64,000 nt of DNA from Antedon mediterranea (lineage: Eukaryota > Animalia > Echinodermata): positions 1,850,201-1,914,200 of the forward strand of contig NC_092670.1 of NCBI RefSeq assembly GCF_964355755.1, given 5' to 3'. The notes under the pieces were generated by a model. That model was not told where the DNA came from, searched no databases, and saw only the letters and a program-made list of their open reading frames with translations. Of this stretch, positions 4,178 to 63,034 are shown piece after piece; positions within the stretch are counted from its first letter, which is position 1, and each line of letters begins with the position of its first letter. Both the position numbers and the translations under genes were made by a program.

Positions 4178-6229
4178 TTATTCATAGAGACTGCTAACAC
4201 CTTTTGTAGTCAATAATTTTTCAAAATCTTCTCTTGCCTTATCAACCGACTGTCCTCTAAGATTCGATACTAATGACACTTTTCCTTTCGTTAGCTCCGG
4301 GAAAGCCGGACTACTGACAACATTCTTCGCTTTTGTAACTTGATCGTCGTCTGTTCCAGAATTTGTTTCGGATATTTGTTGTCGGGTTTTTGCTCGTTGA
4401 ACGCTCTTTTCACCAACTTTCTTGCGAAGGTCTGTATAGGTTGACCGTTTTTGACCATCTGAAAAGGAGAAAAAATCTAAAAATCAGTCAACTATTATTA
4501 TTAATAAAAGACGATCGCAATGCACACCACCCCACTCGTAGGCCTACACTGATGTTACCAAGGTCCGTACGCGGGGAGATAAAAACACGCACGCGTACTA
4601 TCATTGATGTCACCAAGGTCCGTACGCGGGGAGATAAAAAAAAAAAACACGCACGTGTACTAACATTGATGTCACCATACGTCCGTACGCGGGGAGATAA
4701 AAAACACGCACGCGTACAAACATTGCACCAAGGTCCGTACGCAGGGCGATAACAAAACACACGCGTACTAACATTGATGTCACCAAGGTCCGTACGCGCG
4801 CAAAGAGTATACTTATTACTTATATCGCAAAGGATCTTACTTGAAAACTCACAAATTTATGGTATAAAATAAATATGAATTGAATAATAATTGCATAATT
4901 AGGCCTAATGGATTAATGAGTATTTTTTTTTTGCCAAACGTTTAACGGGTTTGTTAGGCATGATAGTTTAAATGTCGAGGATTTTAAATAAGCAACAGAA
5001 AAAAAAAATCAAAACTTACGAATATCTTTTTTTGAGTCAGTTTTCTTGTTTTTTCTATTCGCTTGTACAACTCGTTGAATACTTTCCTCTGAAAATACCA
5101 ATGCTCTATCACCGGCCACCGGGTTGCCATTACAGCATTCTGCATTACACATTTCTCTATCATCTTCCACTTTTCCATGCGGGGCAGCCGTTTCTTTAGC
5201 ATTTTTATGTAAAATATCGTAGCCGGGTCGGAATGAGTCGGTGAGTTGATGTTGTAAATAATCGTATAACTTACGAAGTTCTTTATATTGCAATTTGTTG
5301 TTCAGTGTTTCATCATTGTCGTCAAGATTATTGATAGAAGGCGATTTAAAAAGTTCGTTTCTGTCTCCGGTCGCCGGTTCCGGAGACGGATACTGTATCG
5401 ACTTGTAAGAACTGTGCATCTTACTAATAGCTGACCCGTCTATTGTCTGATTTTCGTCGTCAAAAGTTACGTAAGAGACAGAATCATCGGAACCATACAA
5501 AGAGTCGTACTCATCATCGTCATCTGAGGCGCCAACCCGCCGTTGTCGAACAGCGTTCTGTTCTCTGTACGCTATCATATTGGATACTTTATTTGGGATG
5601 GTTGGTAAAAAAGACTGCTGTTTGGTCGTCTGAATAACCTTTTTCGGACGCATTTCCGCCCAGTCGTACGCACTACGAAATTCACGGTCGCGTACGGTTG
5701 TCGACGCGTTACCTTGATGGATTAGAATACTAGCGCTCACATCATGTCCTCCACGCATAGCTTGCATTAATGGAGTCATTCCATTGAAATTTGGAATATC
5801 CACGCTCAGAGAGTATTTCAGTAAGGCATCCACCATCCTTTTCACAGTGGCAGCACTACCAGAAGATGCAGCGTGAAAAAGAGCTGTACAGCCATTCATA
5901 TCCACCTGGTTCAGGTCAAGATCCACGTCTCTGTGAGCTAGAAGGTAACTTACAAGATAGTCTTTACCGTAGATGCACGCCCATTGCAGCGCATTCCTCC
6001 CGACGACATCTGTCTGCGAAACTTTAGCGCCATATTTCAGAAGCAGTTTTACAACTTTGATCTGGTTTCGGTTGTTGTCGATGAAGACCGCTCGTATCAG
6101 CGGACCTTGTATGCAGTCGTCGACGACGGAGACACGAACGCCGGATTCGATAAGCAGACGAACTTGCCGAGGTCTACCCGCCGAGACTGCCTTAAGTATA
6201 GCGGAACTTGTACCGCTTTCTTCTAGCAT
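4178..6229 (-). CDS. Ankyrin-repeat protein (ANKRD34/63-like architecture), 2 exons: 6229-5020 and 4458-4178, ~496 aa
   Basis: N-terminal ankyrin repeats (GRNALQWAC, GCTALFHAA, GMTPLMQA); phase-1 donor gtaagt after 5020 joins in frame to acceptor at 4458, open to TAA at 4178. Confidence 0.8.
4540..4800. repeat. Imperfect ~60-bp tandem repeat in the ankyrin gene intron
   Basis: Repeated caccaaggtccgtacgcggggagataaaaa...acgcgtactaacattgatgt. Confidence 0.85.
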
Positions 6230-7938
6230 GGTTAATTCTTACAGTAGAGATGATTTGAAAAAATAGTTAATTTTCAATAGACGATTAAAAAGAAGCTGTA
6301 AATATGTTTTTGCTTCTGTTGGTCAAACACAAACGTTCAGCCCTACTGTACTGTTGGTCAAGGCAAACTGTTATGCGAATATACGTGATAACAATCGAGC
6401 TAAACTCTTGTAGACAAGATAAGGTATCAACTAAACTTAGGGACGGATGTGAACATTATCAATATCTCTACACGTCCTCCTTCCAAAGTTTCGTCATTAC
6501 GTCACTTTAATTGACGGAGTGACGTCACATGGAACGATGATTGACGAAATGTCAAATTAATTATCACATAATGGTTATTAAATGTTATCTTCCGCTAGTC
6601 AATGTGGATTACAAGTGTATGTTACACAAACCACTTTCAATTTAATAAAGGTTGAAGCATTCAATGATTAGGAGACTGACCTTTACCGGATAAGGTCTTT
6701 GTTCTCAGGAGGAAGAAAAGAGTTCTCTGTTTATGGCACGTCATTGTCGACATCATGCGTCCACAATGGAACATGTCCCCCGGTTTGTGGCGCACTGTGA
6801 ATACCTCACAGTCGGTTTTTTCGTTACAGTGTTCAAATCAATTACTGAGATAAACTCATTAGATTTGTTGCATTAAAGATTTTATGATCAATTAAAAATC
6901 TATTTTTATTGATTTCTGTTCGGCTGTTCAGAATCGGATACTACTGCTACCTATCCTATTTTGTAACGATTAAGTATAAACAGTTACTGTAATGTTACAG
7001 ATTACACAAAAGTGAATTCAGGAGAGAATTCAAGGCAGGAACAAAATAAGTCGAAAATAATTATGATCAAAGATGTAGGGCTATTATTAATAAAATCAGA
7101 CTTAAAATAGGCCATGTTGTAGTTTTAATAAAGTTAATGTTTTCGATCCCAATTTTGGTCAAAGTGAACAAAAAAAACATTTAGGGGCTGTATATTATTA
7201 AGAATCAGAATCTTATTATTGTTATAATGGAGAAGGGAGGGAGGGGAATTAATGGGTTTTATTACAAGTTACCGTATGTAGATTAAGTAAGATTACCTAT
7301 GTTTTTTGTCTATTTTGTGCTTTCATTTATTATATATTTTTGTTGGACGCACCTTCAAAATGTGAAGTGTGCCACTGTTACAAAAGTGAAGTTCCGAAAT
7401 AATAATTAATTATTATTATAGTATTTTTTAAGGATCTTTTTGATTGACAGTGTCAAACATAGGCCTACACAATCAACAATCTACAAACAAATTGTCAAAT
7501 CAAAGTGTACACAAAATACTTTACAATGCTGAAGGAGATATGACGTCACGCGATGTCAAATAAATTGTACTGTGTATTAATATTATTATTTGACTGTTAA
7601 CAATAAAATGGCATTTTAAGGAACTTTTAAAACATGGTTCACGATGATATAATAATAGCATGAATGAAGAACAGAGTTTTAAATGACTTGCATCTTGGAC
7701 AAGTGTGTGTTCTTCACACGGACTTCTCACCAAGTGTTTTCTGTGTGTTTAAACATTGTATAGTGAATATTAAAAGTAAACACGGAACACCCGCTATGAA
7801 TTAATAAATAGGTCAATTTGGGGTGGGTGAGAGAACAAGGGAGAACAATACGCAATACGGGCTGAAGAATGGTAGCCATACCATGCAGGTGATGGGTGAG
7901 AGAAAGGGAGAACAATACGCAATACGGGCTGAAGAATG

Positions 7939-8774
7939 ACGACTTTGAAAGTGGCTATGCTGACGACTTTGCTGTAAGCTCCTGGTCACAAGAAGAACTG
8001 CAAACCATTGTGAACATCTTGAATAAAGTTTGTCTGGAATTTGGTCTAAGAATTAGTGCCCCCAAAACAGAAACCATTATATGGAACTGGAAAGAGGAAG
8101 TTGAAGAATACCCAAGATGCATCATACAAATTGGCGGCGTACACATTAACAACGTAACACACTTTAGATACCTTGGTGTATGGGCTACCTACAATGATGT
8201 TCATATTGGAGATCAAGAAGTAAAATACAGAATCAATTCAGCCAAAGGAGCATTTGCAGAGAATAGGGCATTGCTTACCAACAGAACGATCCACCTACAA
8301 ACAAGAATGATGTTTCTTAATGGTCTAGTTAGGAGTAGACTCACCTATGGTTGCCATGCTTGGAGGGCAACAGGAAGTGAAATGTCCAAACTTAGCACAA
8401 CATACAAAACCTTCCTAAGAAGAATGCTAGTGAATGGCTTTCAAAGAGTCTGCCCACCAAACCATGTAGACATATCCTCAGATGAAGAAACAGATGAAAA
8501 CTATATAGACTGGCGTTACGTAATTGATAATGACGATCTCTACAAAATTACTGGCTGTCAACCGCTAGAAGAATATGTCTACAAGCAACAATTCAACTGG
8601 ATCGGACATGTAATTAGAAAAGAAAATGAAGATCCTACAAAAATTCTTACTTTTCACACAACACAAAGTAAACGAAGAGGTCGGAAGATACCATCAGTAC
8701 TTGATAGAGTTGTACAACAAAGTCAACTTACTAGATGCAACTTCATTAGAGCCTGCTTCAACAGAAATTTATAA
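7939..8774 (+). mobile_element. 5'-truncated non-LTR retrotransposon (LINE) RT C-terminal fragment
   Basis: YADD motif, GLRISAPKTE, FRYLG, SRLTYGC, WIGHVIR, RRGR typical of the LINE ORF2 C-terminal region; begins abruptly inside the satellite. Confidence 0.9.
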
Positions 8775-9317: not shown

Positions 9318-10407
9318 GGGTGTCACGAAAGCTCAGACCACGAAAGCTCAGACCCCCTAAGACCTAAGATCACGAAAGCTAAGACCCAACACCTAAGATT
9401 ACAAATATTTATCTTTCGCACCTGCCTTGTATTTTAACTCCCAACATTTATTCTGAATACCACACCTTAGAATTGGCACTTTCATGAAAAAGAATCACAT
9501 AAAAAGTAACAAATACATTTTTAAATTGATGATTTTACAGACGTTTTTCTCGCACACAAAATGACTAGCCTACACCGTACAGTAGGCCTACCCCATGGGC
9601 CATGTTCAATGTTTTTGTTTCTATGGAACGTCAAAAGAGCAAAAATTATATAGAGGGCTGAAAACTCTGTGGAGTCCATCTACAGTGTGGATGGAACAAT
9701 GTAAAATTAAAATTGTAATGATAATAGTATAATCATGCAAGTACGAAGAAATAAATACTGGCAAATAAATTTTAACTTAAAAGGTTTTTTGTTTCGTTTT
9801 CTTTCTGTTTTTATACTTGTACTATTATTGTTGCTCTTTTGGCGCTCCATAGAAACAAAAACATTGAACGGGGAGCTCGAGGAGTTACATTACAGTATAC
9901 AAAGAACGCGCGTACAAAGAAACACGCCTGTAAAATCATCAATTTAAAGGATTTATTTATTTGTTATGTGTTTCTCCTTCTGAAAGTACTTATAAGTCCT
10001 AATTTTAAAGTGTGGTGTTCAGGATAAAGTTAGTCAACAAATTATAATATTTGGAGTCAAAATACAAGAAAGGCAGGTGCGTAAGAAAAACATCCTCTGA
10101 AGCAACACAATGGAGTAAATATATACCAACAAACAACCCGTCAAGTTTGTTTGTTGTAAAGAAAAAATATACATTTACTCAACGGGCGAAAATAATGTGA
10201 GTTTATCTATGTTTTGCGGTAGTATTAAATTATATTTATGGTAATAAATGAAACCTACTGTGTTTAAAATTATGTATGGATAAACAAGTATTGTTTTTAA
10301 GCTGTAGTATATCTTAGTATTTGTAATCTTAGGTGTTGGGTCTTAGCTTTCGTGATCTTAGGTCTTAGGGGGTCTGAGCTTTCGTGGTCTGAGCTTTCGT
10401 GACACCC
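9318..10407. mobile_element. Non-autonomous fold-back DNA transposon (MULE-like MITE), ~88-bp perfect TIRs, 10-bp TSD ACCATGCAGG
   Basis: gggtgtcacgaaagctcagacc... at 9318 and its reverse complement ending 10407; accatgcagg at 9308-9317 and 10408-10417; degenerate inverted similarity continues internally. Confidence 0.88.
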
Positions 10408-11442: not shown

Positions 11443-14400
11443 ATGGCGAACAAGGGGCACGTTTTGATTTACTTGTCTGTTATTTTAAAGCTGGCTTTGA
11501 GTCAGAGCGACGACCCAACAAATCCTCATAGAGATCCGTCAAAATGTGAAGGTAAGAAATATTGGAAACAGGCTAATAAATAGTAGTAGGCTAGGGCCTA
11601 GCTAGCAAGCAGTTGTACAACTCTCCATACAGTACCACGCCTGGTGTAGCACAGTACTATTTAGCTTCCAATCTGACTATTCTGTTGATTTTGGATCATT
11701 ACTATGGGCTCTGGCCAAAAGCAATTATAATTATACCTACAATGTACATCTATCTATTTAATTGCACTAGGCCTAGGCTAGGCCTACTACCACCGCCGTG
11801 CAAAGGGCAGGCGCTAATATAAGGATCTGATGTACAGATTTAAATATTGTATATAGTTTATACTGTCACTGCACAGGTAGTTAAATTATTAACAACATAA
11901 AGTGGCCTTATACTTTATTTTAATCTGGTTATTAAAATAGAAAACATAATTTGGTTTCCAGATTTAATGATGAATAATAAATAATGTAATGTTTTAGTTT
12001 GATATTCTGTTTTTTAGATTTTCAATAATTGTTGAAAAATTCATTTCCTGTTTTGCAGTTTGTAAATATGTTGTTGACGAATTAGAGGGTAGCTTATCTG
12101 ACACCTCAAAAACTCATGAGGTTTTAAGAATAGGACACGAGTTTGATAAAGAAGCTAAAGAAATAAAGTACAGGCATTCGTAAGTACATTAACTATTTTT
12201 AGGGATGCTTCTATATATAGATTAATTAATTTAGTTTCAGCAATTTACTCTATAACCAAATTTTGGAGTCCCCTTACACATGAAATACATGTGATAAATA
12301 AAACAGTAAATACAGAAATGTCTGGCTTACAACTTTGAGGCATAATACATTATTAAATGCATACAAATCAATAAAGGAAATGAATAATGGATCCATTTTA
12401 TATACGAATAATGCATTTAATTATACATACAACATTAACCAATGATTGTTGTCTCAGCAAGAATTAATATGAGTACTGCATATATCTTAATGAATAATGC
12501 ATACATGTTAATGAGTACTACTGTATTAATAATACATACATGTTAATGAGTACTATGAACAATGCATGAACCAAGTACAGAGAAATATAATCACAAATTT
12601 AAGCTCAATTTCACAACAAGAAAGTATTACTTTAGATTCCTATGGAAAGCCAAACCCGCCAAAAATACATAATACATACCATCCACCAATAATTAATTCG
12701 TACAAAATTCAAACCATCCAATATTATCTCATGCAGTTCAATGAAAACTTAAACCATTCACCTAGTATCTACACCATCCAATATAATGTGTGACCATCTA
12801 TCACTAGCCCAAACGACAATACGCCGAACAAACTACCCATAACACAAACCATCTAAAGAATGTTGAGCCCAGGCAGCAATAATTGAATTAATCTAACGTT
12901 AATACAAGTATATATTAGTCAACTCATTTATCAACATTTCATGTAGTTCATGAACATTTCAAACAAAGCATCTTAATTATAGTTCATCGAATTATAATTC
13001 TAATACATTGCCTGTTTTATACACCGTTCGTCTGTTCAACAGTTGAAACAACTGTTTTGCACACGATACGCCCGTTCGTGAGTTCAAACCATGATATTTG
13101 AAGCATCGACTTTCCAAACAGCGATTTTTCGCACCGAACGTATTTTCTTGAGTTAAAGTGGTTGCATTTCAATCACTTACTTTTGATTGGCCAGTATTAC
13201 ACACCGTTCGCTTGTTCGTGATTTCAAACCATGATATTTGAAGCATCGACTTTCCAAACGGCGATTTTTCGCACCGAACGTATTTTCTTGAGTTAAAGTG
13301 GTTGCATTTCAATCACCTACTTTCGATTGGCCAGTATTACACACCGTTCGCTTGTTCGTGATTTAATGTGATAACATTTCATTCGACAACTTTTCAAACG
13401 TTAGCTTTTGGCTCCGCTTACGTATATATCAGTTGATATACTATTTTTTAATTTTCATACTTTCCATACATCAGTTTTGTACATCATTCGCATTTACGCA
13501 TGTAAAGTGTAGATATTCCACTCGACAAGTTTTAAAACGGTAGTTTTTGTTTTATTGTTTAATTGTAACTGTTGGCGCCGATTTTATATTGGGGTGGGGG
13601 GGGGGGGGAGGTGTTCGGTACTGAATGTGAACAGTACACATTTTTAAATATGGTACCTCTACATGTCCGGAAATTACACTCTCTCAAAAAAGGGTTTTTT
13701 TTTCCGTAGTGTGTAATATTAAATCAACCACAACCACAACCGTAAGATGAGAACATTTTAGGAACAATGGACATGTTATGCCCTGAAATTGTACTCATTA
13801 AAAATATTCCAGCTAGAATAAAATGTATAGTCCCCTCTCATATTCCCAAAAGTCTTTAACATGGCGTATGTTCCTATTGCTATTGCTTTGCAAGAAATCT
13901 GTCAAACACTTGAACAGTATGTGAATGGTAACATTGATAGAAATCTATTAATGCCACTCCCAATGCGACTGGAGGTTATTATCGAAACGATAATCGGGCA
14001 TGAAAATATCCGGTTAGAGGTAATCGATAATCTTGTAGCGAGTAAAAGAGCGATAGAAGAAGTCATTGGCCCAGGCCAGGTAGGAGACGAACATCCCACT
14101 ACGGACTCTGCCATGATTCACACTGGCAGACCAGGACGGGCAAGATTTGTGATCGGGCGTAGTCAGCTGCAGTTCTTTGTGGGTGCGTATTATTTTTAGG
14201 CCTCCTAGGTTTTGGGCCTAGGCCTATGTATCATTATCTACTTTAATTATTTCTTGTCTTTGGTAAAGTGGCTACCATCGAAGTAAGTAATTCATTCATT
14301 AAATTAAATTCGTGTTTCGGAAGCCATCTTCTTCTTGAAGAGAGTGGCAAACAGTCGTAACCAGCCGAGCCTTAAAAACAATTATTTTTTGTTTTTTACG

Positions 14401-17400
14401 CTCGGCTGATCATGGTTGTTTATCATCTTTGTAAGATAGTAGCACGAACATAGTGTGTTTAATACAAATTTAAAGTAGGCCTAACGACCTTTACTTTTAT
14501 GTGAAACAAATTTTGTAATTTAAATATTAATATATTGCATGACAAAAGGTAGGTAGGTTGCATGATAGGTAGGCCTACTGTATTATTTTTTTTTAAATTA
14601 TTATGAGGCTCTTGCAATAATAAGCATGTAGAGTCTTTTTTCTCTCGAAAATATTACCTTACAGTACAGTACTTTGAATTATTTCTTAGAATTTTCTAGC
14701 CAATATATTATCCAATTCCCATATAACAATTTAGTATTAATAATGAACAAAATTTGGTGTTTTTGTAAACCTAATATTTTACTTTCCGTTCAGTCTTCTC
14801 TCCATAGTCAGTTATTTTCATTTACTTCGTAGACAACAACTTTACTGTTCAGGACATGAGTAAAATGTTTTCTGTAAGTAAAAGAACGATAGAAAGGAGG
14901 CTACAAGAATACAACATGACAACAAGAAACTACACAGATATTTCTTCCGAGTTTCTAGACGCGCGTATTGGCATGATAACCATGAATTTTCCAAGATCAG
15001 GTAGGTATTTAAAATATACAGAATGGCTTGTTTTGTTACGCGACGGACTTTAGAATAGAAGAAGTACTCCTTCGACATGATAAGCATACAAAATAAGGAT
15101 TATTTTTTGAAAGGTTGGGTTAGATACGATGATCGCATCATTTATTGATGGGATGGGATTCTTTCTAAATGATAGAGAGTAGTACCACTGTTTGTAGCGG
15201 TAGCTATTTGCATAGTTTGCTTATTTGTTTTTCTTTATTCATCATTTCATCTTAACACTAGGACTTAAGTCAATTGAGGCTCATTTGATGAAAGACGGCA
15301 TACGAGTACGAAGAGAAGCATTGCGAGATTCTGTCAAAAGGGTTGATCCCGTTGGGCGTCATTTGCGGTCTCTGCGTTGCATACGCAGACGAGTTTATTC
15401 AGTGCCATCTCCGTTGGCTCTGTGGCACATAGACGGGAATCATAAACTAATAAAGTAGGTCTACACGTTTACGATATGTTATGATCAAAACAGATTCGTA
15501 GGCAACCCGACGCAGATATGAAAAATGATAATGTAAATGTAAGAAATTTACATTTTATGATACAATAACATAAAAGTATTTTCAGTTTCCTTTATAATTG
15601 TCGTATGTTTGATTCTACAGATGGAGGTGTGTGATTCATGGAGGTATTGATGGTTATAGTAGAGCGATAGTGTACCTAAAACTCAGTACAAATAACAGGG
15701 CATGCACGGTTCTAACTTGTTTCCAGGAAGCTGTCAGAAAATGGGGATTGCCGTCGAGGGTGAGAGCGGACAAGGGGATCGAAAATGTTGATGTGGCTCG
15801 CTTAATGTTGAACCACCCTTCTAGAGGACCAGGCAGAGGTAGTTTTATTACTGGAAAAAGTGTTCATAACAGCAGGATTGAAAGATTGTGGAGAGATGTA
15901 TTTGAGGCTGTTATATGTTCCTGGCGCACATTCTTTAGCAGTTTGGAAACCATGGGTTGTTTGGACCCAGATAACGAGGCGCATATTTTTATTTTACATT
16001 TCATTTATGTACCCATTATTAATAGTATGTTGATGGATTTCCAACTGATGTGGAACAACCACAAACTGCGGACCGAGCACAACAAAACCCCAAATCAATT
16101 GTTCATAATGGGTATACAAAATATTGCATCCGATGCAAGCATCATAGCGTCTGAGTACTTTGAAGCCATACCAGAGGTAACGTGGAGTTGTATAAATTAA
16201 AGTAATAAATAAAACCTTCATTTTATACGGTATTCTTGGATTTAGAATGTAAGGCGAACGGATGTTCGTATAATTTGTTTGTCGTAACAACTACGTTATT
16301 ATAAACCTGTAACAAAAACTGTTTTAAAAATAGTCTCCCCGACACACACATTATACGTGAGAAACTACTTGTATAGTTAGCCGTTACCGTACACATTTTA
16401 ATTTTACCGTGTCTTGTATGATCTACCTAATCTTCTTTCATTATTTTGGCTTATTGTAGGAAAGTGTTCAGCAGTATGGTATAGATCCAAACTCACCCCT
16501 TCCAGAAGAAAATGATGGTATAGTTGTCCCTGACACTGCCTGTCCAATGAATGATGAACAACTCTCTTTATTTAAGGATGAAATAGACAATGCGCTAAAT
16601 AATGCAGTTGATATTTGGGATGCAACTCCTTATTTACGAGGCTTAGATATTGTTTCTGAATTTTGATGAGTAATAATGACTATTGTGAATGTTTAAAATA
16701 GAAAATTATCATAATGCATATATTAATAATTTGGTTGGCATTTACACTTTAGTATTGGAAATCAGGCTGTGTGAATATCGATTGTTTTGAAAAACAACTT
16801 ATTCTCAAATGAATGTTAATGTTTTTATTAGTTAATTATATTAGGCCTAAAAATATCTGTGTAGATTGGGGATAGAGAGAGAGAGAGCATGTTGCACAAT
16901 TTTACTGATTGGTGTATTTAATGACTGCCTTAATTGTTAATTAACAACAAGTTTCTTTAATTGTTAAAGAAAAACGTTTATTGCCATTAAATTGAAAAGG
17001 TTATTATATGTCCTAAAATCAATACCGTAGTCAACATATGATTTGCTTTAACATTTTTTCTACTGATGTGTAAACTAAATATGTTTGTTGAAAATAATGT
17101 TGTACTTAATGTTTCAAGAACTGCCGACACTAAAATGTTTAGAATCAAATATTATATTTCATTTATTTAGATCTACCCTGTACAGGGGGTTTAAGAACTG
17201 GTATGCCTAATGTTTAAAACGGAAATAATATGAAAACGTATTAGCTCATAACAACCCTTTCAACCATCGCTCATCTTCTTCTGTCATATATCTTTCCGTT
17301 ATGTAAATACAAATTACCACCACTCTTTCTCAACGGTCACCTCCTCTATCCACTCTCCATGTCCTAAATTGAAGCATTATGGATTTTGCTCTGTGATTGA

Positions 17401-20400
17401 ACCAACCCATATCTACAGTAGAAAACTTTATTTAAAGTATGTCACTTGCTTTGTTCTGACCCACTTAGGTCTACACATTACCAAAAAACTGTTGAGAAAA
17501 TGCCAAATCATACATATTGAACAGTGTGTCTTTTGGCGGCAGACTGCATGTTAAACCTGGCCGTGGAAGTTGCATACTGTTAATACACGTGTTGGCAGAC
17601 GGGAGAAAAGAACCTGCTGTTTCTGTAAATACTATTTGTGGATGGAGAACAAAACCCAACACTGGTTCTTCATCCGTTCCGGTCACAAACTGCAACAGAT
17701 GACCAAGCGTCAGGTGACCTCTTCTACCACCTATGAAAAAGAGAGGTAAAAGTCAAAACAAATCAAGTCATAACAAAACCCTTTTAGCCATCGCATCAGT
17801 AAGTGACTTGGCTTAAATGCTTTGAATAGTTTTAACACTGCATGTTCTGATATGAATTAAAAGTAATGAGGTTTAAGAAAATTTGAAAAATGTCGGAGTA
17901 AAGCGAATTTATTTTGGTATGTTACGGTTATTGCTCTTTTTTGCCATTTTAGACACTGTTATTATATGGTTTGCGACGGCAACAACAAATACTTCACTTG
18001 TATAGCGGACACATCCACTACAAGTGTGCTCAATGCAATATTCCTTTATTGTTTGTTTATTGTTTTCCACACATAATAAACTTAAAGTTAAATTGTACTA
18101 AACAAAAAGTGACTTCAGAAATACACATAAATAAAAAAGGGTAAGTGTGTGGAAGCCAAAATAAGCTTGAGAACTTTAGGGCATGGCCACCGGTTAAAAT
18201 AAGGGTTTAAACAAATAATGGATTGCATTATGCTACAGTAGGGCAGAAAAAGGAAAATATACGAACAGACAGTCTGTGTTTTTCTATAACTTATAACTTA
18301 CTAGCAACCTCTCTGACGTAGTCCAGAAATTGGGCATATACAGAACTTTCAAATATCTTAGTGTTTGAGCCATCGCTGCCTTTAAAAGATGGCTTCAACA
18401 ATTCTTTCATCTTTTTTACAGATAATAGTGCTGCAGGGCTGGGTCGAAAAAGATGAACAAATGTTGGTATGTGACAACAAAGCTATAGAAAATAATTAGA
18501 TAAAATGGTAGACAAGTGAATTGAATTTACAATTTTCAGTTGATCATTGAACGCATTACATTATTGTTTCAAGCAGAGATGAAGCATTATAGTGATTGGA
18601 TCTGACGTATGCATATCATTGTGTTTTAGTTACTTATTTAAAGATATGGATCAGAAGCTTAAACTGGCAGTAACTGGTTTTGCGCTCTGTATATGTATAT
18701 TGTAGCAGTACTGTACGACATACCTGATATATCCCCAACTTTGCGAGTCCCTTTCTTAAATTGGTTATGCACTCAGAAGGAGCACTGCTGTTGACGAGTT
18801 CGTCGATAAGGTCACTGTGCATGAATTGTGGCAATTTGCCATTCTGGACGATACTCATAGCTGTTAAAAGATAACCATTTTTAAATACATTAAATCATTA
18901 TAACAGTACCGTACTAGTAAAAAGAAACAAAATAAAACATACGGTATAAGGCTATTAGGAACCAATTTGGTGAAAACAATTGTTGCATTTACACGCCACG
19001 TCACACGTCAAGGAACCTCAAATAGCACCGTGAATCGCGTGATTTTATTGTAAGTAGACATTGAAAACCTACCCATTATTATGCCGATGTAGTAATATTC
19101 CTCGGGAACGTGTTCTTTCATACCGTTATCAAAATAACCATCTTTTATTGCTCTTAAAGCCAACACAAAAAATTCTTTCCTCGGGCCGCCATAATCGGCT
19201 GCTCTCTGTGTGTAAGATATGAAATTACTGTATAGCAACACGGTTAACATCTCATTTTAACTAAAATGCTTTGAATATATTCGATTAGTTTTTACAAATT
19301 CAATTGTTTTTTTTTATTATCATTGTATTTCAAAAGGTTAATTTTATTTATTACAATAAAAATGTATTTAATATACCTCATCATAGAATTGCACTTCCAG
19401 TGTTTTGCGGTAGTCGGCCATATCCCTAATTTCCGAAAAAGCAGTTGCAAGCACATCTTCTCTATTAATCATAATAAAATTTGTTTCCCCTTCGATTACC
19501 TCTGCTTCATCTTCTATCTCTAGTGGTCTTCCTGAAACAATAGCTTTTTGGTAATAACGTAGCACTTCTACAGGATTCCCATTAATGTTGTGGGTATTGC
19601 AGTAATTCACGGTATCTTTGACAATTGTTTCAATAGTAGTAAGAGCAGGTTCTCGTTCGTTACGTTCTGGTTCGTTAACAAACTAAAAATAACAATTATT
19701 TTTGTAAATGATGATACTCATCAAAACCGAAAGCTATAGTACATACTCTTGCAATAATACATAACTTCTATTATAACATAGCTAGGTAGCTTATCTTTTT
19801 CACTGAAATCGCACTATGTTTAGTTTTTTAGTTCTAAAAGTTGTTTATATAATTATATTTAAATAATGAACTAGGAACTAGCTTCACAGACATTGAATGA
19901 GTAGTGCCTACGTACAATGTTTTCAACAATTTCTAAGTCTAAGTTCTGTTCTGTTCTGTTCTGTTCTAAGTTCTCGGAGGCCGGTATTGGTTCGGTGGCC
20001 GGTATTGTTTCGGTGGCCGGTACTTCATGTAGTCCCGGTTCCAGGTCACTGTCTGAACTTGAATCTTCGTTCTGGGGTTCAATAAGAGAAGATAATGTAC
20101 AGTAATATTGCGTGGTCGAGTGAAAAAAAAGTTGTTAGCCTAAATTATGATAGAAATATTCAAATTAAGCATTTTGTTATGTTAAAAATGTATTATACAA
20201 ATCAAATAAAAAAAGGAGAATATTGATAATATCTGAAAACCGGTAATTACCGGCAAGTCCGTATCGGGAAAATTGATTTTCAATTCTCGTTTCTGAAAAC
20301 TGAAACTGATTACCAATACTACTTTCTTCTCTTTCACAGGTAATTACCATGCAATATTTGATGTGCACTTTCATGTTCTTCATGGAAATGTTGGCCCTAC

Positions 20401-23400
20401 AATTTAAACATTTTTCTCGGGCTTCCACTAATGGTATTTCTGCCTCCGGTATATCCCGCTGCAATGGGCGAATGTATAATTTTCCAGAACCAAATGTTCT
20501 AAGGTCTTGAACTTTACATGGCCCGTAATGGACAACAATCAGTTTTTTGCGATCACCTGTTGTTATCTCAAACCCTCCGCAATTTGCAAGCAACGGAAAT
20601 GTTCTACAAAAACAAATTAAAAATAAATATGTAGAATTTTGTTCTCATTTGCAAACTGTCATAAGCATCATCATCATAGTTGATTATTTTCTCTTTAACA
20701 AACAGTATTTTGGCAAAATCACCACAGAAAACATTTCGATGTGAAAACATTAGAAAAATTATCTTACTTAAATACCAGGTTGCAAAAATCGTCTTGATTG
20801 CCTTCCGCTGGAAACACAATTTTCTTCTCGCCATAGCCGTTATCTTTCAGTTTTCGACGTTGGGCTACAGTAGGAACAGTTTCCATTTTGTGTTCCATGA
20901 GGCATACTAAAAATCTTGTCAATGTTCTTCCTAAAAAAGGATAAAATATCTTATAAAAACCATCTTTTATTAATAATCATTTCGGTCAATTAAGAAGATA
21001 AGACCTCCTTGTATTATTATTAGGCATGTTTTTTGGTTAAATAGCAAATTTTGTTACATGGGCTAATTGTTGGAGGTTAGCAAATATACAGATATGTTAG
21101 GAAATACATAACATCGTTATTCTTTTTATTATATGTTTAATAAAACTGTTAACATTTCAACTTTATATAAAAAACATACACCAATAAACCTGATTGGCAG
21201 TATTATCCGAACTCAACTATAACATGACGTAATAACTGTACCGACCTAAATACATTACACACGACAGCTTCTAAACTCTCATTGTGAAAATACAATTAAA
21301 ATTGATGCGATAAAACAATTAGCATCGTACCTTTTCCAGATGGTTTACTACTGGTACTGTTGTTGCTATGACCCCTGTTATATGGGGTTTGTCTCTGAAA
21401 TAATATTATATGTACACAGTGATAAAAACTCGTTCAAAATGTTAATTTTACTTGTAATACAAAAAATATATGATGTTTTACTGAACGGCCAGGTAAGTCT
21501 CCAACAAAATTAATAAAAATGTGATGGACAACATGTTAAAATGTGGCACCATTGTATTGAAAATTATTTAAACTGGATTGGTACAGGCGCGGAGCCACTT
21601 AATAAGCTATCTATCGGTACAATAGTAAACGATTCGGGTGCCAAGAAGAAGGGGGTTTAGTAACATGATGCAACTTACATAATTTCGATTGAACAGTCGT
21701 CTGTGTTCACTCGCAATACTTTGGTCTCTGCTAGGCGTACTGCTGGTGCTAGCACTGGAACTCAACGTAGATCTACTACTAGGCCTACTAGTACTAGCAG
21801 CATGACTAGTGGTTGTAGTAGTACTAAGCTCACTACTACTATTGGAAATGGTAGCAGACGAAGGAGTGTTTGTGATAGAATTTGCTAACCCCTGCAGCAC
21901 CTGCAAAACACTACGTAAATCATCTGACATACTGGATGATACCTGAAACGAATGAGTCCATACAACTTGTATTTACACTTTTTCACAATTTCACGTTAAT
22001 TTATCACATTTTAAGTTTATATACTAGAAAATCAATATTATTCCTAGAGCCTAGTAGGCCTATATGGTTTAGAGCTATTTGGCAAAATAAAAAATAATTG
22101 TTCAGTGGTAGGCTTCTGTACTATTATTATTATTAATAAATACAACCATTGATTAAAATATCGGTCTACGCACAATCGGAGGTTTATATATAATTTAATA
22201 TAAGTATGTGTAATAATAATAATATTATATTATAGGCCTAGCTAGGGCCTGGCCTAGCTGGATAATTCCTATAATTAGTAATTTCAGCTACAAAATCCAG
22301 GTTCCAATCCTGGTCACCACTCATGGCACTAATTGTAGCTTTTTATAAAATAATGATAATAATTCCAATATTAATAATTATTAGGCCTATGCCTAGTATT
22401 AGTATTGTAAGTAGGCCTAGGGCCTATATCATGCCTAGCCTGCTAGGCCTATCTAGGCCTATACAGAAAAGTATAACAATAACTTAAACCATCATCAATT
22501 TCACCTACAAAATCGATAAAACACAGAATTTAAAATAATAATAATAATAAAACAGGAAAACACTATTAAACATTATTATATTTATTTATCTACCTATCAT
22601 CAGTATACGTACGGTACGTACCTTTTTGGTCTTCCTGAGCTGAATCAATTCAAAAATCAGCATCAATGTGTGAAAAATGACGAACTACGCAGTTGAATAG
22701 CCCCCCATCCATAACAGCGTTGGGTTATTTAATGCATGATGAATAACAAATAATTATGATTTAATAACAAATACACATGTTTTTATTTAATCCATGATAA
22801 ATATTCGTAAAATATGTTTATTCGGATATTTATTAATTACGTCTCCACTATAGTCTATAAAACATAATGAATGTCATTATTTCAAAAAAAATAGGCCTAC
22901 CCCGTAAACAAATGGAAGCTTCTCAACAACAGTTAATTTATGCATCATATAGAGAGCACAGAGCAGAAAATGGCTCTAGGCCGGCCTCATCCTAGCAGCC
23001 GCCGCACAGGGGGAGAGAGAAGCACAACACCAGCTCTCTCTCTCTCCCCTGTCTCTCCCCCACAGGCGGGTGAGGTGGGTGTTACCCCGGGCCTAGTTGT
23101 GGGGCGTAAAATTGTAACAGGCCCACAAGCTAAATTATATTATTTCATTCTGGTTTTTTTTTCATTATTTAAGTTTGTGATAATGTGTGTAACCAGGGAG
23201 ATGTAAAATAAATTTATAAATTAGTTTACATCTCCCTGACCTGTGTGTGTAACGTAGGCCTAAGTAAGTGTCATACAGTCGTATTAGTTGACATTCACCC
23301 CCCGCCCCTCAATATTAAATCGGCGCCAACAGTTACAATTTAACAATAAAACAATAAATGTGCGAACAACTACCGTTTAAAACTTGTCGAGTGGAATATC

Positions 23401-26400
23401 TACACTTTACATGCGTAAATGCGAATGATGTACAAAACTGACTATGGAAAGTATGAAAATTAAAAATTAGTATATCAACTGATATATACGTAAGCGGAGC
23501 CAAAAGCTAACGTTTGAAAAGTTGTCGAATGAAATGTTATCACATTAAATCACGAACAAGCGAACGGTGTGTAATACTGGCCAATCGAAAGTAGGTGATT
23601 GAAATGCAACCACTTTAACTCAAGAAAATACGTTCGGTGCGAAAAATCGCCGTTTGGAAAGTCGATGCTTCAAATATCATGGTTTGAAATCACGAACAAG
23701 CGAACGGTGTGTAATACTGGCCAATCAAAAGTAAGTGATTGAAATGCAACCACTTTAACTCAAGAAAATACGTTCGGTGCGAAAAATCGCTGTTTGGAAA
23801 GTCGATGCTTCAAATATCATGGTTTGAACTCACGAACGGGCGTATCGTGTGCAAAACAGTTGTTTCAACTGTTGAACAGACGAACGGTGTATAAAACAGG
23901 CAATGAATTAGAATTATAATTCGATGAACTATAATTAAGATGCTTTGTTTGAAATGTTCATGAACTACATGAAATGTTGATAAATGAGTTGACTAATATA
24001 TACTTGTATTAACGTTAGATTAATTCAATTATTGCTGCCTGGGCTCAACATTCTTTAGATGGTTTGTGTTATGGGTAGTTTGTTCGGCGTATTGTCGTTT
24101 GGGCTAGTGGTAGATGGTCACACATTATATTGGATGGTGTAGATACTAGGTGAATGGTTTAAGTTTTCATTGAACTGCATGAGATAATATTGGATGGTTT
24201 AAATTTTGTACGAATTAATTATTGGTGGATGGTATGTATTATGTATTTTTGGCGGGTTTGGCTTTCCATAGATTCCTCCATAAACTATATAATACAACGA
24301 TTGTAGGAGCAATAGGAACTAGAACTATTCCTCCATAAACTATATAATACAACGATTGTAGGAGCAGTAGGAACTAGAACTATTCCTCCATAAACTATAT
24401 AATACAACGATTGTAGGAGCAATAGGAACTAGAACTATTCCTCCATAAACTATATAATACAACGATTGTACAGTAGGAGCAATAGGAACTAGAACTATTC
24501 CTCCATAAACTATATAATACAACGATTGTAGGAGCAATAGGAACTAGAACTATTCCTCCATAAACTATATAATACAACGATTGTAGGAGCAATAGGAACT
24601 AGAACTATTCCTCCATAAACTATATAATACAACGATTGTAGGAGCAATAGGAACTAGAACTATTCCTCCATAAACTATATAATACAACGATTGTAGGAGC
24701 AATAGGAACTAGAACTATTCCTCCATAAACTATATAATACAACGATTGTACAGTAGGAGCAATAGGAACTAGAACTATTCCTCCATAAACTATATAATAC
24801 AACGATTGTACAGTAGGAGCAATAGGAACTAGAACTATTCCTCCATAAACTATATACTACAACGATTGTAGGAGCAATAGGAACTAGAACTATTCCTCCA
24901 TAAACTATATACTACAACGATTGTAGGAGCAGTAGGAACTAGAACTATTCCTCCATAAACTATATAATACAACGATTGTAGGAGCAATAGGAACTAGAAC
25001 TATTCCTCCATAAACTATATACTACAACGATTGTAGGAGCAATAGGAACTAGAACTATTCCTCCATAAACTATATAATACAACGATTGTAGGAGCAATAG
25101 GAACTAGAACTATTCCTCCATAAACTATATAATACAACGATTGTAGGAGCAATAGGAACTAGAACTATTCTAGAATATGACAAATACTGTGTCTACTGTA
25201 ATTCGTAATTATAGCTTAAATCGTTTTTATTTTACAGTGAAACCAGACTGATAGATGTGCTGGAACAAGTTTGTGAAAGAATATTGAAGTATAACATCCA
25301 TGCTGAAAGAGAGGCAAGCCGAAGGTATTTAACTGGTTTTGTGGTTAAGGTACCCGATGTCTTTATTGGTTCTGGTACCCGATGTCTTTGTTGGTTCTAA
25401 GTTCAACAATTCTGATGTTCAATTTTGTTTTTTTCAAAACGTTTCAGGTTTGCAAAAGGAACCGCTGAAACAATGCAGACGCTGATGAACTTACGAGATA
25501 AAGGGGTCAAAGTTGAACTTGGAATACCAGATAACATGTGGGAAGTACCAGGTGCTCCCATATATAAAATGAAACAATACGTAAGTATCTCACGTTATCA
25601 GTTAATTACGCACCATATGATAAGTTAATTATATTTACAGTCCGTGTAAGAATGAACTGATGGAAAATGCTAAAATCTTATCCAGGGAGGTTTTATACCT
25701 TCATCATATTCATGAATTTTGTCATATTATTAATTATTAATAATAAGAATACAGTCGAAGTTAACATACAGCCTAGAGGTTGAGGGCATTGAGGCATGTC
25801 TTCATCACCTATACGGTGCATGGCCTCATTTGGGTATACCATAGTCTTCTTATGATAGCCTAAATTTATTTAACAGTTGAAAGAGTGACAATAAAATACT
25901 GTAATACTTTGCTCATTTTTTTCTAGTGTGATTCACTAATTGAGCAATATGAAGATGTGATAAATGATTGGTATTTTGCCGAACCAGATGAAAGGACTGA
26001 CCTAACAAACCTTCTGTGTCTAGATAACTACCTAGCTAAGGGTGACCAAGGTAATATAAAGAACTGACCTAACAAACCTTCTATGTGGCAGTGATATGGG
26101 TAGTGACATCATCATGTCCATATATGGGCACATCATATTTTATTGTCACATAGAGACAAGTTTGATAGTGTAAGCAGAGCTTAAATTATTGAAACTTTTT
26201 TTTTATTCCCAAGAGTGTTTAAAGGAAGTTTGGACCGGTAAAGAGCGAGTGGACTTTGATGGTGACCAAGAAGATGAGGAGAAACAAGAGAAAAAAAAAA
26301 AAACAGGCAAAAAACGTAAGAAAAACAACACGCAGGATGGTGAAAAGAAGAAAAAGGCAAAAAAAGGCATTCATTTGAATTCAGAAAATATCCACTCAAC

Positions 26401-34200: not shown

Positions 34201-37200
34201 ATGGCCGGTGTTCAAGTAAGTATTGTTGCTTTCTTTACTTGTTTTTGTGTACCACAGCATTTTTTTGTTACTTGGTAATTTATTGATGTACTTGCTTGTC
34301 TTTTTAGATGGAGTCATGATGGTAAATACTTTGCTAGGATTGGTGAAGACAGCCTCAGTGTTTATGAAACACCGTCGTTCGGCCTTCTGGACAAGAAAAG
34401 TTTTAAGTGTAATGATATAAAGTAAGTAAAGAACATGTTCATAGTTCATGTTCATAATATATAATAATAATATATACATTTTGGTTATAATTTAGTCAAA
34501 TATAAAGACATTTTAATCAAAGATTGACATACTTTTTAGGGATTTTTGTTGGTCACCAGCCGATAGCATCATTTCTTATTGGGTCCCCGAACAAGGAGAA
34601 AGTCCTGCTCGTGTCACGCTTCTTGAGATCCCATCGCGTAAAGAGCTTCGAGTTAAGAACCTTTTCAACGTATCCGAGTGTAAACTACACTGGCAGAAAG
34701 CGGGTGATTATCTCGGGGTCAAAGTTGATAGACTTACTAAAAGCAAGAAGGGACAATACTACAGTTTTGAAATCTTCCGCATACGAGAGAAGCAGATTCC
34801 GGTAGATGTAGTAGAAATTAAGGATCCTATCGGAGCATTTGCGTGGGAACCAGTTGGGTCGCGGTTCGCTGTACTTCATGGTGAATCACCAAGAATTGGT
34901 GCTAGCTTTTATAATGTGAAGCCTAACAGTAAAATTGAGTTAATAAGTAAGTTACACAAATTAAGCATCATCAAATAGGTCAACTTAAGCCTGTTTTTCA
35001 TTTAGGCTAATTTATACGTTGACTATTGCACATGCATAGTATTATTTTCATGTTTTATGACTTGAAAAATTGTACAATAAATCAAAACTTAGAATTGTTT
35101 GTTTCGCGCGAATATATTTGCCTAGTGGAAAATATGCTGTAGAGCATTAATTTATATCTAATATTATAATCTGCATGAATCATTTGCTTGGGGTGAGCAT
35201 CGGAACTTGTATATTCAATTTCATAGTTAACAATACTACAACTAAGACATTCTTTTTTATTATCTAGCTACATTAGAGAAAAAAGCAGCAAATGCATTGT
35301 TCTGGGCACCAAATGGTCAATTTATAGTACTCGCTGGTCTGCGATCGTAAGTAAAGTATATACTAACTCTATGGCGTGTTTAATCGAAATTCATGTCATA
35401 AATTGTATTTAATTCCACAAACCTATGTTTGGATTTACTGTAGAAAAGAAAAATATGAAGATTAAATTCTGCTATTTTTTAGACCTGTTTCATGTTTTCA
35501 ATTCCAGAATGAATGGAGCATTGGAGTTTGTCGACGCCAATGACATGACTATCATGAACACGTCGGAGCATTTTATGGCAACCGACGTTGAATGGGACCC
35601 AACTGGACGATATGTAGCAACAGGTGTCAGCTGGTGGAGTCATAAGGTTAGATTAATATCTTCTGAAGATTTTCCAGTTTGTGACACTCTTCCTATTTGT
35701 TAAATTTTTCGCCTTTTGTTGGCAGGATGTTTGGAATTACAGAATAGATTAATATTCAAGGGGAAATTGTTTCACTGGACCTAAAGTTTATAGTCCTTAC
35801 TCTATCTACCACAAGAACCATGGAGCTAGTGGTGATGGCTGTTCCACTGTCTTAACCACTCGGTTCTCACATGTGGTTATGGCTACTGTTCCACTGTCTT
35901 AACCACTCAGTTCTCACATGTGGTTATGGCTACTGTTCCACTGTCTTAACCACTCAGTTCTCACATGTGGTTATGGCTATGTATTACTGTTCCACTGTCT
36001 TAACCACTCAGTTCTCACATGTGGTTATGGCTACTGTTCCACTGTCTTAACCACTCAGTTCTCACATGTAGTTCAAATATCAATTTGTTACTACGTACTT
36101 AAATGTGAGAATTAAAATATTGATTTATAACTATTTATATTGATGACTCTGCATTTGTGTCTGCAGGTTGACAATGCATACTGGATGTGGTCGTTCCAAG
36201 GAAAAGTACTTCAAAAATGCACTACAGATCGCTTCTGTCAACTGTTATGGCGGCCACGCCCACCGCCAGTGCTTACTGAAGAACAAATCAAGGTACTATC
36301 TACACCCCTTCACATTGAATGGAATAATCTGTCCAGTTTATTTACTTACTGTGAATTCTGAAAGATAGATAATATATATTAAAATGGAACCCATACTCTA
36401 CATAACTACTGTAAATCCTTTAGTTACAATTACATCTAATAAATAAAGAATCACAGGAAAAAGTGAAACATTCATTGAAAGCCCGATCATTAATTAATGA
36501 CAGTGACAGTGGCTTTGGCTGCTTCTGTGCTTTCCTGGCAGATAGTGACTATGATACATTTTCTCCTTGCATCATGTTTGTTTAATTTGTATTATATTTT
36601 GTAAAATGTGTCTTTTGCCTGATTAATTAATAGTAATAAAAGTATTGTTTATTTTTATCCTCCAAAGGATTTGAAAAAGAATATGAAGACGTACAGCAAA
36701 CGTTATGAATTGAAAGATAGAATGAGCCAATCAAAGGCCTCCAAGGTAAGACGATTTGTGGAAATAATGCAATAGTAGGCTAGTTACATTGTTTTGAATA
36801 GTGTATAGATTGATTTGACATAATGCAATAGTAGGCTAGTTGCATTGTTTTGAATAGTGTATAGATTGATTTGACATAATGCAATAGTAGGCTAGTTGCA
36901 TTGTTTTGAATAGTGTATAGATTGATTTGACATAATGCAATAGTAGGCTAGTTGCATTGTTTTGAATAGTGTATAGATTGATTTGACATAATGCAATAGT
37001 AGGCTAGTTACATTGTTTTGAATAGTGTATAGATTGATTTGACTTAAAATCTCATTTGAAGAACAAAACAATGAGAGTAAATCACAAATGGCACAGCCGA
37101 TAATTAGTGTGCGGCAAAATCAAAGTTTATTTTAACTTTTCTTGTAGGAAATCATTGAAAGACGTCGTGTATTGATGGAAGAATTTGAAAACTTCAAGAA

Positions 37201-51660: not shown

Positions 51661-63034
<11,374 letters not shown>

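Follow-up and report, generated by a model that had tools for sequence, protein, structure and literature searches.

A HECT-domain protein is encoded beside the transposase of an IS3EU/GingerRoot element in Antedon mediterranea

DNA transposons of the IS3EU/GingerRoot superfamily are defined by TAYGG..CCRTA termini and a 6-bp target-site duplication (TSD) (PMC10045372, PMC12730594; here and below, published work is cited from the available portions of each text), and the described IS3EU members encode two proteins (given second-hand in PMC8232023). Rust-fungal IS3EU elements have these ends and a TSD of this length; beside the transposase they carry, in the opposite orientation, the gene of an alpha-kinase, a protein-modifying enzyme (PMC12730594). 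Here we analyze an element of the same superfamily in Antedon mediterranea, contained in a 64,000-nucleotide stretch of contig NC_092670.1 (positions 1,850,201 to 1,914,200), which we call the window and to which all coordinates refer. The element resembles described IS3EU/GingerRoot transposons in its TA..TA termini, 6-bp TSD, terminal inverted repeats (TIRs), integrase-like DDE core and coding capacity for two proteins. It differs in that its second protein is a HECT-domain protein, in place of the rust-fungal alpha-kinase, in that it has no TET/JBP gene, and in its TIRs of about 960 bp, compared with 100-150 bp in plant GingerRoot elements.

The second protein invites comparison with two further groups. 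It shares with canonical HECT E3 ubiquitin ligases (NEDD4, E6AP, HUWE1, UBR5 and AREL1) a bilobal fold (Z up to 20.8), the DxGGP..EFF motif, the P-x-A-x-T-C loop and an aromatic residue four positions from the C-terminal end, the latter being a feature of the class. In contrast to them, its HECT domain is about 75-90 residues shorter in the N-lobe, with probable loss of the small subdomain that binds E2, and stands behind a ubiquitin-like domain and a finger; its gene is multi-copy and mobile. The protein also shares with G2E3 and the GL-Metazoa group a highly divergent metazoan HECT domain (PMC3673628, PMC2837046). Vertebrate G2E3, however, exists as one host gene, whose product has PHD/RING-like fingers and a HECT domain without function, whereas Pfam finds only a HECT domain in the window protein, the catalytic cysteine is kept, and several copies lie inside TIRs. 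A preliminary description of the locus, made from the letters alone, had expected automated pipelines to label the gene 'G2E3-like'; the names actually in use among the matches listed are 'uncharacterized' and 'HECT-type E3'.

The words HECT and ubiquitin do not occur in the available main texts of the IS3EU/GingerRoot papers PMC10045372, PMC6839031 and PMC8232023, HECT was absent on searching from the available supplement of PMC12730594, and the string 'transpos' does not occur in the available text of PMC3673628 or PMC2837046, two HECT surveys in which divergent metazoan HECT proteins count as host genes. Full-text literature searches did not find a pairing of IS3EU/GingerRoot elements with HECT proteins, although a prior description in Repbase or in the Kojima 2019 review is possible.

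The element, its two genes and its mobility

Local alignment of the two TIRs extends over 963 bp in the left arm and gives 951 matches, 10 mismatches and a few indels; their outermost 828 bp contain four mismatches and zero gaps. The termini TATGG and CCATA lie inside these repeats at their outer edges and are flanked on both sides by GATTCC; the chance of a match for a 6-mer of this make-up is about 2e-4. A TSD of 8 or 9 bp (TAGATTCCT being compatible with both sides of the empty-site joint) was ruled out in favor of 6 bp, since it is at TATGG/CCATA that the two TIRs are symmetric. The intact element with a GATTCC duplication and nearly identical TIRs of about 960 bp that the preliminary description had delimited is thus borne out by sequence and alignment. 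As side observations, a 55-bp tandem array at 24271-25270 begins exactly at the right TSD, its first unit starting with GATTCC and later units with TATTCC, and short high-depth pieces with loose ends at 18950-19036, 22226-22381 and 14302-14768, inside introns of the element's genes, are probably small nested repeats.

An allele lacking the element, with a single GATTCC, is present in three of the four sequencing runs searched (X1, X8 and X5), where a joint from 12632 to 24269 skips 11,636 positions, equal to the 11,630 bp of the element plus 6; the insertion is therefore polymorphic. Run X1 contains every sampled word of the element interior as well as the empty-site joint. Other copies are evident from foreign flanks that abut the left element end in six contigs of X1 and six of X5, and from an internally deleted, non-autonomous derivative in X1 that retains both TIRs (joint from 13663 to 22718). 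Contig depth in X1 is 33 in the flank versus about 127 in the element body, but depth here does not equal copy number and is not used as such. With an empty-site allele, near-perfect TIRs and further copies, the element is young and mobile, in keeping with the cut-and-paste element, young and probably mobile, that had been proposed at first. A much shorter joint, from 12665 to 24222, was seen in X5. Contigs of this run (organism B), compared over positions 11891-22205, differ from the window at 3/1886, 8/3924 and 16/~1680 letters inside the element, as against 30/~570 and 6/105 letters in the left flank, the one flank available for comparison. That the element is far less diverged than the flank hints that it has recently passed from one labelled organism to the other, or that the two share gene pools.

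The transposase gene has GT-AG boundaries at all four introns and no internal stops, and its fourth exon matches Pfam rva_4 with an E value of 1e-67. Its catalytic triad is D221, D278 and E315. Following the domain order of a relative's model, the protein would consist of an N-terminal helical domain, a helix-turn-helix region, the rva_4 core and a C-terminal tail; the model of this relative matches TnsB and retroviral integrases with Z scores of 14-15. By eye, the core resembles the Repbase subgroup with the motifs LWHID.NHKL / GG.DG.SR / R.DKG.ENV / SVHN.RIERLW, comprising IS3EU-1_CVi, -1_SK, -3_CGi, -3_DR, -4_DR and -6_CGi. The rva_4 match, the triad and these motifs identify an integrase-like DDE transposase of the IS3EU lineage.

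The second gene of the element, convergent to the first, has GT-AG boundaries at all nine introns and no internal stops. Its translation agrees with RefSeq XP_071954475.1 from A. mediterranea (P0042) at all 635 residues, and Pfam recognizes the HECT domain with an E value of 3.9e-9. Both uninterrupted reading frames, of five and ten exons, had been correctly anticipated, except that a further coding exon upstream in the HECT gene, optional and in frame with exon 1, was missed; its counterpart in another copy is used in the RefSeq proteins P0043 and P0001. Contigs spliced at transposase intron 4 (X8) and at HECT introns 9 and 7 (X10) bear out one of four and two of nine of the predicted junctions, with a short side of only 24 letters at the intron 7 joint; whether these runs are RNA or DNA is not on record, and the joints constitute good but partial evidence of expression. 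Two contigs, of 41.4 and 36.2 Mb, encode an identical 635-aa HECT protein, the first exon on the 36.2-Mb contig being shorter by one residue than that in the window; a third contig (31.9 Mb) carries a truncated copy.

The HECT gene across the element family

Is the HECT gene a regular constituent of such elements? Metagenome contigs were scanned with an alignment of 65 HECT proteins, yielding 215 confirmed stretches, the best 80 of which were kept as loci and searched with 120 transposase homologues. An rva_4 transposase accompanies the HECT gene at 26 of the 80 loci, and in all 26 cases it lies on the opposite strand and downstream, which is also the arrangement in the window. Among loci with 2 kb of sequence or more on the side in question, a transposase is found downstream at 19 of 25 and upstream at 0 of 15; after clustering at 80% identity, these counts become 12 of 17 downstream and 0 of 8 upstream (p 0.0016, Fisher test). 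The proteins of the paired elements are 36-52% identical to those of the window, yet the convergent layout is fixed. Inverted repeats surround both genes in five of the 26 paired loci, and one contig contains a full element of 5,956 bp (L072:2313-8268) that has the termini TATGG..CCATA and is flanked on either side by CTTTAG. The flanks of another locus, L020, were considered as a TSD and rejected, being inverted rather than direct. A gene captured on a single occasion was expected to be single-copy, syntenic with host orthologs and absent from other copies, and this expectation failed on each point tested: the HECT gene is part of the element family, as its initial reading as the element's own second gene had it.

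The HECT frames are under purifying selection. The ratio of nonsynonymous to synonymous substitution rates (dN/dS) is about 0.25, with values of 0.27 (L005/L009, 527 codons) and 0.23 (L001/L034, 207 codons) for the two best independent pairs; a further pair, L031/L064, gives 0.48 on 148 codons. Of the 11 pairs compared, four were saturated, one offered 30 codons only, two were near-identical (0.07 and 0.58), and one repeated L005/L009. The HECT and transposase trees were compared over 17 non-redundant pairs, five of 26 paired loci having been dropped for short coverage and five of 22 as redundant. Six sister pairs are common to both trees with support of 95-100, and distances in the two trees correlate with a Mantel rho of 0.57 over the 17 pairs and 0.65 when one member per sister pair is retained (11 pairs).

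The family is large, with 631 clusters at 50% identity and E values up to 1e-10. Named homologues of the HECT protein come from bivalves, hemichordates, corals and one anemone, 20 of the 80 metagenome loci are at least 60% identical to named cnidarian proteins, and the closest clusters in the ESM Atlas consist of HECT proteins from chordates (score 0.96-0.97). None of 43 pattern matches was confirmed when viral contigs were scanned with the HECT alignment. When accession numbers in named genomes were checked for adjacency of transposase and HECT proteins, no neighbors emerged among the 10 clusters listed, a result that is uninformative because these are of different subfamilies. Intronless transposase and HECT frames were observed in the relatives L005:82-5374, L001, L003, L004 and L013, which lend themselves to cloning; L005 has both frames whole and no zinc finger.

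The HECT protein and its possible role

In the predicted AlphaFold2 model (mean predicted local distance difference test, pLDDT, 79.5), the HECT protein begins with N-terminal helices and a Ser/Thr-rich linker, followed by a ubiquitin-like beta-grasp domain (residues 105-209), a finger (226-245), an acidic linker and a C-terminal, bilobal HECT fold (~329-635). The ubiquitin-like domain matches the TBK1 ULD and the protein UFM1 with a middling VIA Z of about 7. The finger, with the spacing C-x2-C-x11-H-x3-C, draws weak Pfam matches of the XAF1 type and presumably resembles UBZ4 fingers in this spacing. The HECT fold is recognized by Foldseek (E 1e-10) and superimposes on HUWE1 (6xz1) with a VIA Z of 20.4 and an rmsd of 3.5 over 270 aligned residues. 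Cys598, which aligns with the PTAHTC motif of AREL1, is retained in 64 of 65 aligned family proteins, and F or Y stands four residues from the C-terminal end in 76 of the 78 proteins having the catalytic motif. Five family members (P0003, P0018, P0038, P0171 and P0182) were seen to start with a SAM domain where the window protein has plain helices, and P0178 carries PF01335.

That the element possesses its ends, TSD, empty site and other copies, that the convergent pair recurs, that the HECT frame is under purifying selection with its cysteine and aromatic residue kept, and that about 75-90 residues of the N-lobe are missing family-wide are points that we jointly regard as nearly certain. What would a transposon gain from such a protein? 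DDE chemistry is well established, and by analogy the transposase would bind the TIR subrepeats, excise the element and insert it with a 6-bp stagger. We propose that the HECT protein binds its cognate transposase. Because the usual E2 site is probably missing, ubiquitin would be loaded onto Cys598 by a non-standard route, with the extra helices at the N-terminus, the ubiquitin-like domain or the zinc finger serving instead to hold an E2 or adaptor. Ubiquitination of the transposase would then either keep its dose low or tag the strand-transfer complex, once finished, for removal by the p97/proteasome system, which may let the host repair the gaps. To the chain as a whole, from binding through non-standard loading to ubiquitination of the transposase, we assign a probability of roughly 0.45. 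The alpha-kinase of rust-fungal elements offers a parallel. A complex prediction for the HECT protein and transposase of the intronless relative L005, omitting the last 89 transposase residues, scored 0.38 compared with 0.16 for the best control, with runs agreeing in at least 32% of contacts and a partner pLDDT of at least 62. In calibration, the pass mark was reached at scores up to 0.60 by only 5 of 78 solved complexes but by all four passing mismatches, so passes at low scores are wrong more often than they are right; the prediction is weak support for binding.

Several observations weigh against this proposal, some of them coming from the HECT domain itself. The domain spans 302 residues in the model, compared with 375 in NEDD4 and 374 in Smurf1, and the deficit relative to Rsp5 and AREL1 between sequence anchors is 80-91 residues. 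The shortening falls in the N-lobe, where model residues 323-504 cover E6AP 476-761, and the model contains no beta-strand between residues 397 and 518. The N-lobe's small E2-binding subdomain consists of alpha6-alpha8 and beta5-beta6 (PMC3077247), and as judged from lengths, secondary structure and sequence motifs it is this part that is most likely lost. Among 291 proteins examined, 192 have both anchors; the linker between them measures 17-30 residues in 187 and exceeds 30 in none. Profiles built from the segments on either side of the missing part matched no solved HECT structure, one giving zero hits and the other a single unrelated one, to PCNA. With the E2-binding subdomain probably lost, ordinary catalysis of the HECT type becomes less likely, and the ubiquitin-ligation module of the preliminary description cannot simply be taken as a standard HECT E3. 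That description stands in its reading of a young, mobile IS3EU element with a HECT gene of its own.

Further such observations come from the family. Deep co-descent is modest, the correlation falling to 0.45 (p 0.009, 10 pairs) and 0.32 (p 0.09, 9 pairs) with outliers removed, and L020 is placed differently in the two trees. Together these suggest gene swaps between elements, which strict cognate pairing would disfavor; the comparison of the two phylogenies thus gives a divided answer, with co-descent holding at the tips and swaps probable deeper down. In the best pair, the HECT frame is the faster-evolving of the two (dN/dS 0.27, compared with 0.08 for the transposase), as might be the case for a host-directed protein. 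Linkage was counted from HECT loci to transposases only, the HECT frame of the full element L072 is broken, and 6 of the 25 loci with at least 2 kb downstream have no transposase, the HECT frame being broken in five of these and apparently intact in L016.

It is conceivable that the HECT protein is instead an anti-silencing effector that ubiquitinates a host factor, such as a piRNA-pathway, chromatin or innate-sensing protein, with the transposase not a substrate. The faster evolution of the HECT frame and the apparent swaps between elements would fit such a role, as would the variable N-terminal modules (a SAM domain in 3 of 13 family proteins scanned, a finger in 38 of 116) and the TET/JBP genes that fungal IS3EU elements also carry and that have been read as anti-silencing (PMC12730594). 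The ratio of observed to expected CpG is 1.41 in the TIRs and 0.64-0.87 in the flanks, which may merely reflect youth. Pfam and structure comparison, however, found no host substrate-binding domain of a known kind in the HECT protein, and both the weakly predicted binding to the cognate transposase and the six co-descending sister pairs speak against this reading. On balance, we consider a host-directed effector rather unlikely.

Alternatively, the protein may not be a ubiquitin ligase of the usual kind: lacking an E2 site, it could draw on another donor of ubiquitin or of a ubiquitin-like protein, or serve as a decoy or scaffold for the ubiquitin machinery at the transpososome. The family-wide shortening of the N-lobe, the size of the deficit and the built-in ubiquitin-like domain, with its middling structural match, are all consistent with this idea. 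Retention of the catalytic cysteine and of the C-terminal aromatic residue, in turn, fits ordinary thioester transfer, and the placing of the missing segment is approximate, the profile comparison having matched no solved HECT. We judge such a departure from ligase function improbable. That the gene was captured once from the host, or is a neutral passenger, is largely refuted and very improbable indeed: GingerRoot elements do capture host gene fragments (22 of 77; PMC6839031) and divergent metazoan HECT families have been treated as host genes (PMC3673628), but here a whole gene with nine introns occurs in several copies, in a layout fixed across diverged elements and with a dN/dS of about 0.25.

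Returning to the proposal that the HECT protein acts on its own transposase, we may speculate further, and with some doubt, that an IS3EU lineage widespread among animals encodes a minimal HECT ligase without the E2-binding subdomain, loaded by a new route and possibly only when docked on the transposase. On this view, transposon machinery would account for much of the unexplained 'G2E3-like / GL-Metazoa' HECT diversity in animal genomes, and vertebrate G2E3 might retain, in its HECT domain, a domesticated relic of it. What is the relevance of these findings beyond this locus? The little-studied second gene of animal IS3EU elements receives a name, and a transposon is seen to keep an enzyme of the ubiquitin system under selection across diverged families. 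An intact, polymorphic and spliced copy provides material for a first transposition assay in the IS3EU superfamily, and a natural HECT domain with its catalytic cysteine but probably no E2 site offers a direct test of what a HECT domain minimally requires. In the annotations of molluscs, corals and hemichordates, many of the models named 'HECT-type E3' may represent genes of transposons. A HECT partner selected throughout a transposon family, with a trimmed N-lobe, should surprise specialists on transposons and on ubiquitin alike.

Feature coordinates and the rest of the window

The element lies within an intron of a host gene; its features and those of the host locus are collected in Table 1.

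Table 1. Features of the element and its host locus, in window coordinates
Feature	Position	Strand	Size or product	Basis or remark
IS3EU/GingerRoot DNA transposon	12641..24270		11,630 bp	TATGG..CCATA termini
Left TSD	12635..12640		GATTCC	flank sequence and empty-site joint
Left TIR	12641..13603	+	~963 bp	self-alignment; first letters TATGG; internal ~70/140-bp subrepeats at 13054-13403
IS3EU transposase gene	13861..16666	+	5 exons, 481 aa	ORF/splice model and Pfam rva_4
Transposase exons	13861-14182, 14833-15000, 15262-15454, 15621-16176, 16460-16666	+		
HECT gene, convergent to transposase	17471..21930	-	10 coding exons, 635 aa	splice model, RefSeq identity, Pfam
Optional upstream HECT coding exon	22622..22663	-	14 aa, in frame with exon 1	matching exon of another copy used in RefSeq P0043, P0001
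Right TIR	23298..24270	-		self-alignment; last letters CCATA
Right TSD	24271..24276		GATTCC	first letters of 55-bp tandem array
Host intron containing the element	12180..25237	+		X8 spliced joint from 12179 to 25238
Canopy-like (DUF3456) host gene	11444-25580	+		Pfam DUF3456 on exons either side of element

Elsewhere in the window, a second TIR-bounded element at 53414-57720 has 632-bp arms (98%) and nested inverted repeats inside, and is interrupted by a reverse-transcriptase-like frame at 56559-57050. At 9318-10407, perfect inverted arms of 90 bp are flanked by a 10-bp direct repeat, ACCATGCAGG, with a 69-bp tandem array adjoining. Further frames include an intronless ankyrin-repeat frame of 409 codons (5012-6238, minus strand), a non-LTR retrotransposon-like frame recognized by eye (7893-8771, plus strand), an exon with a Pfam match to eIF2A that by eye is eIF3b-like (34517-34975, plus strand), and a CRAL-TRIO exon (57849-58316, minus strand).

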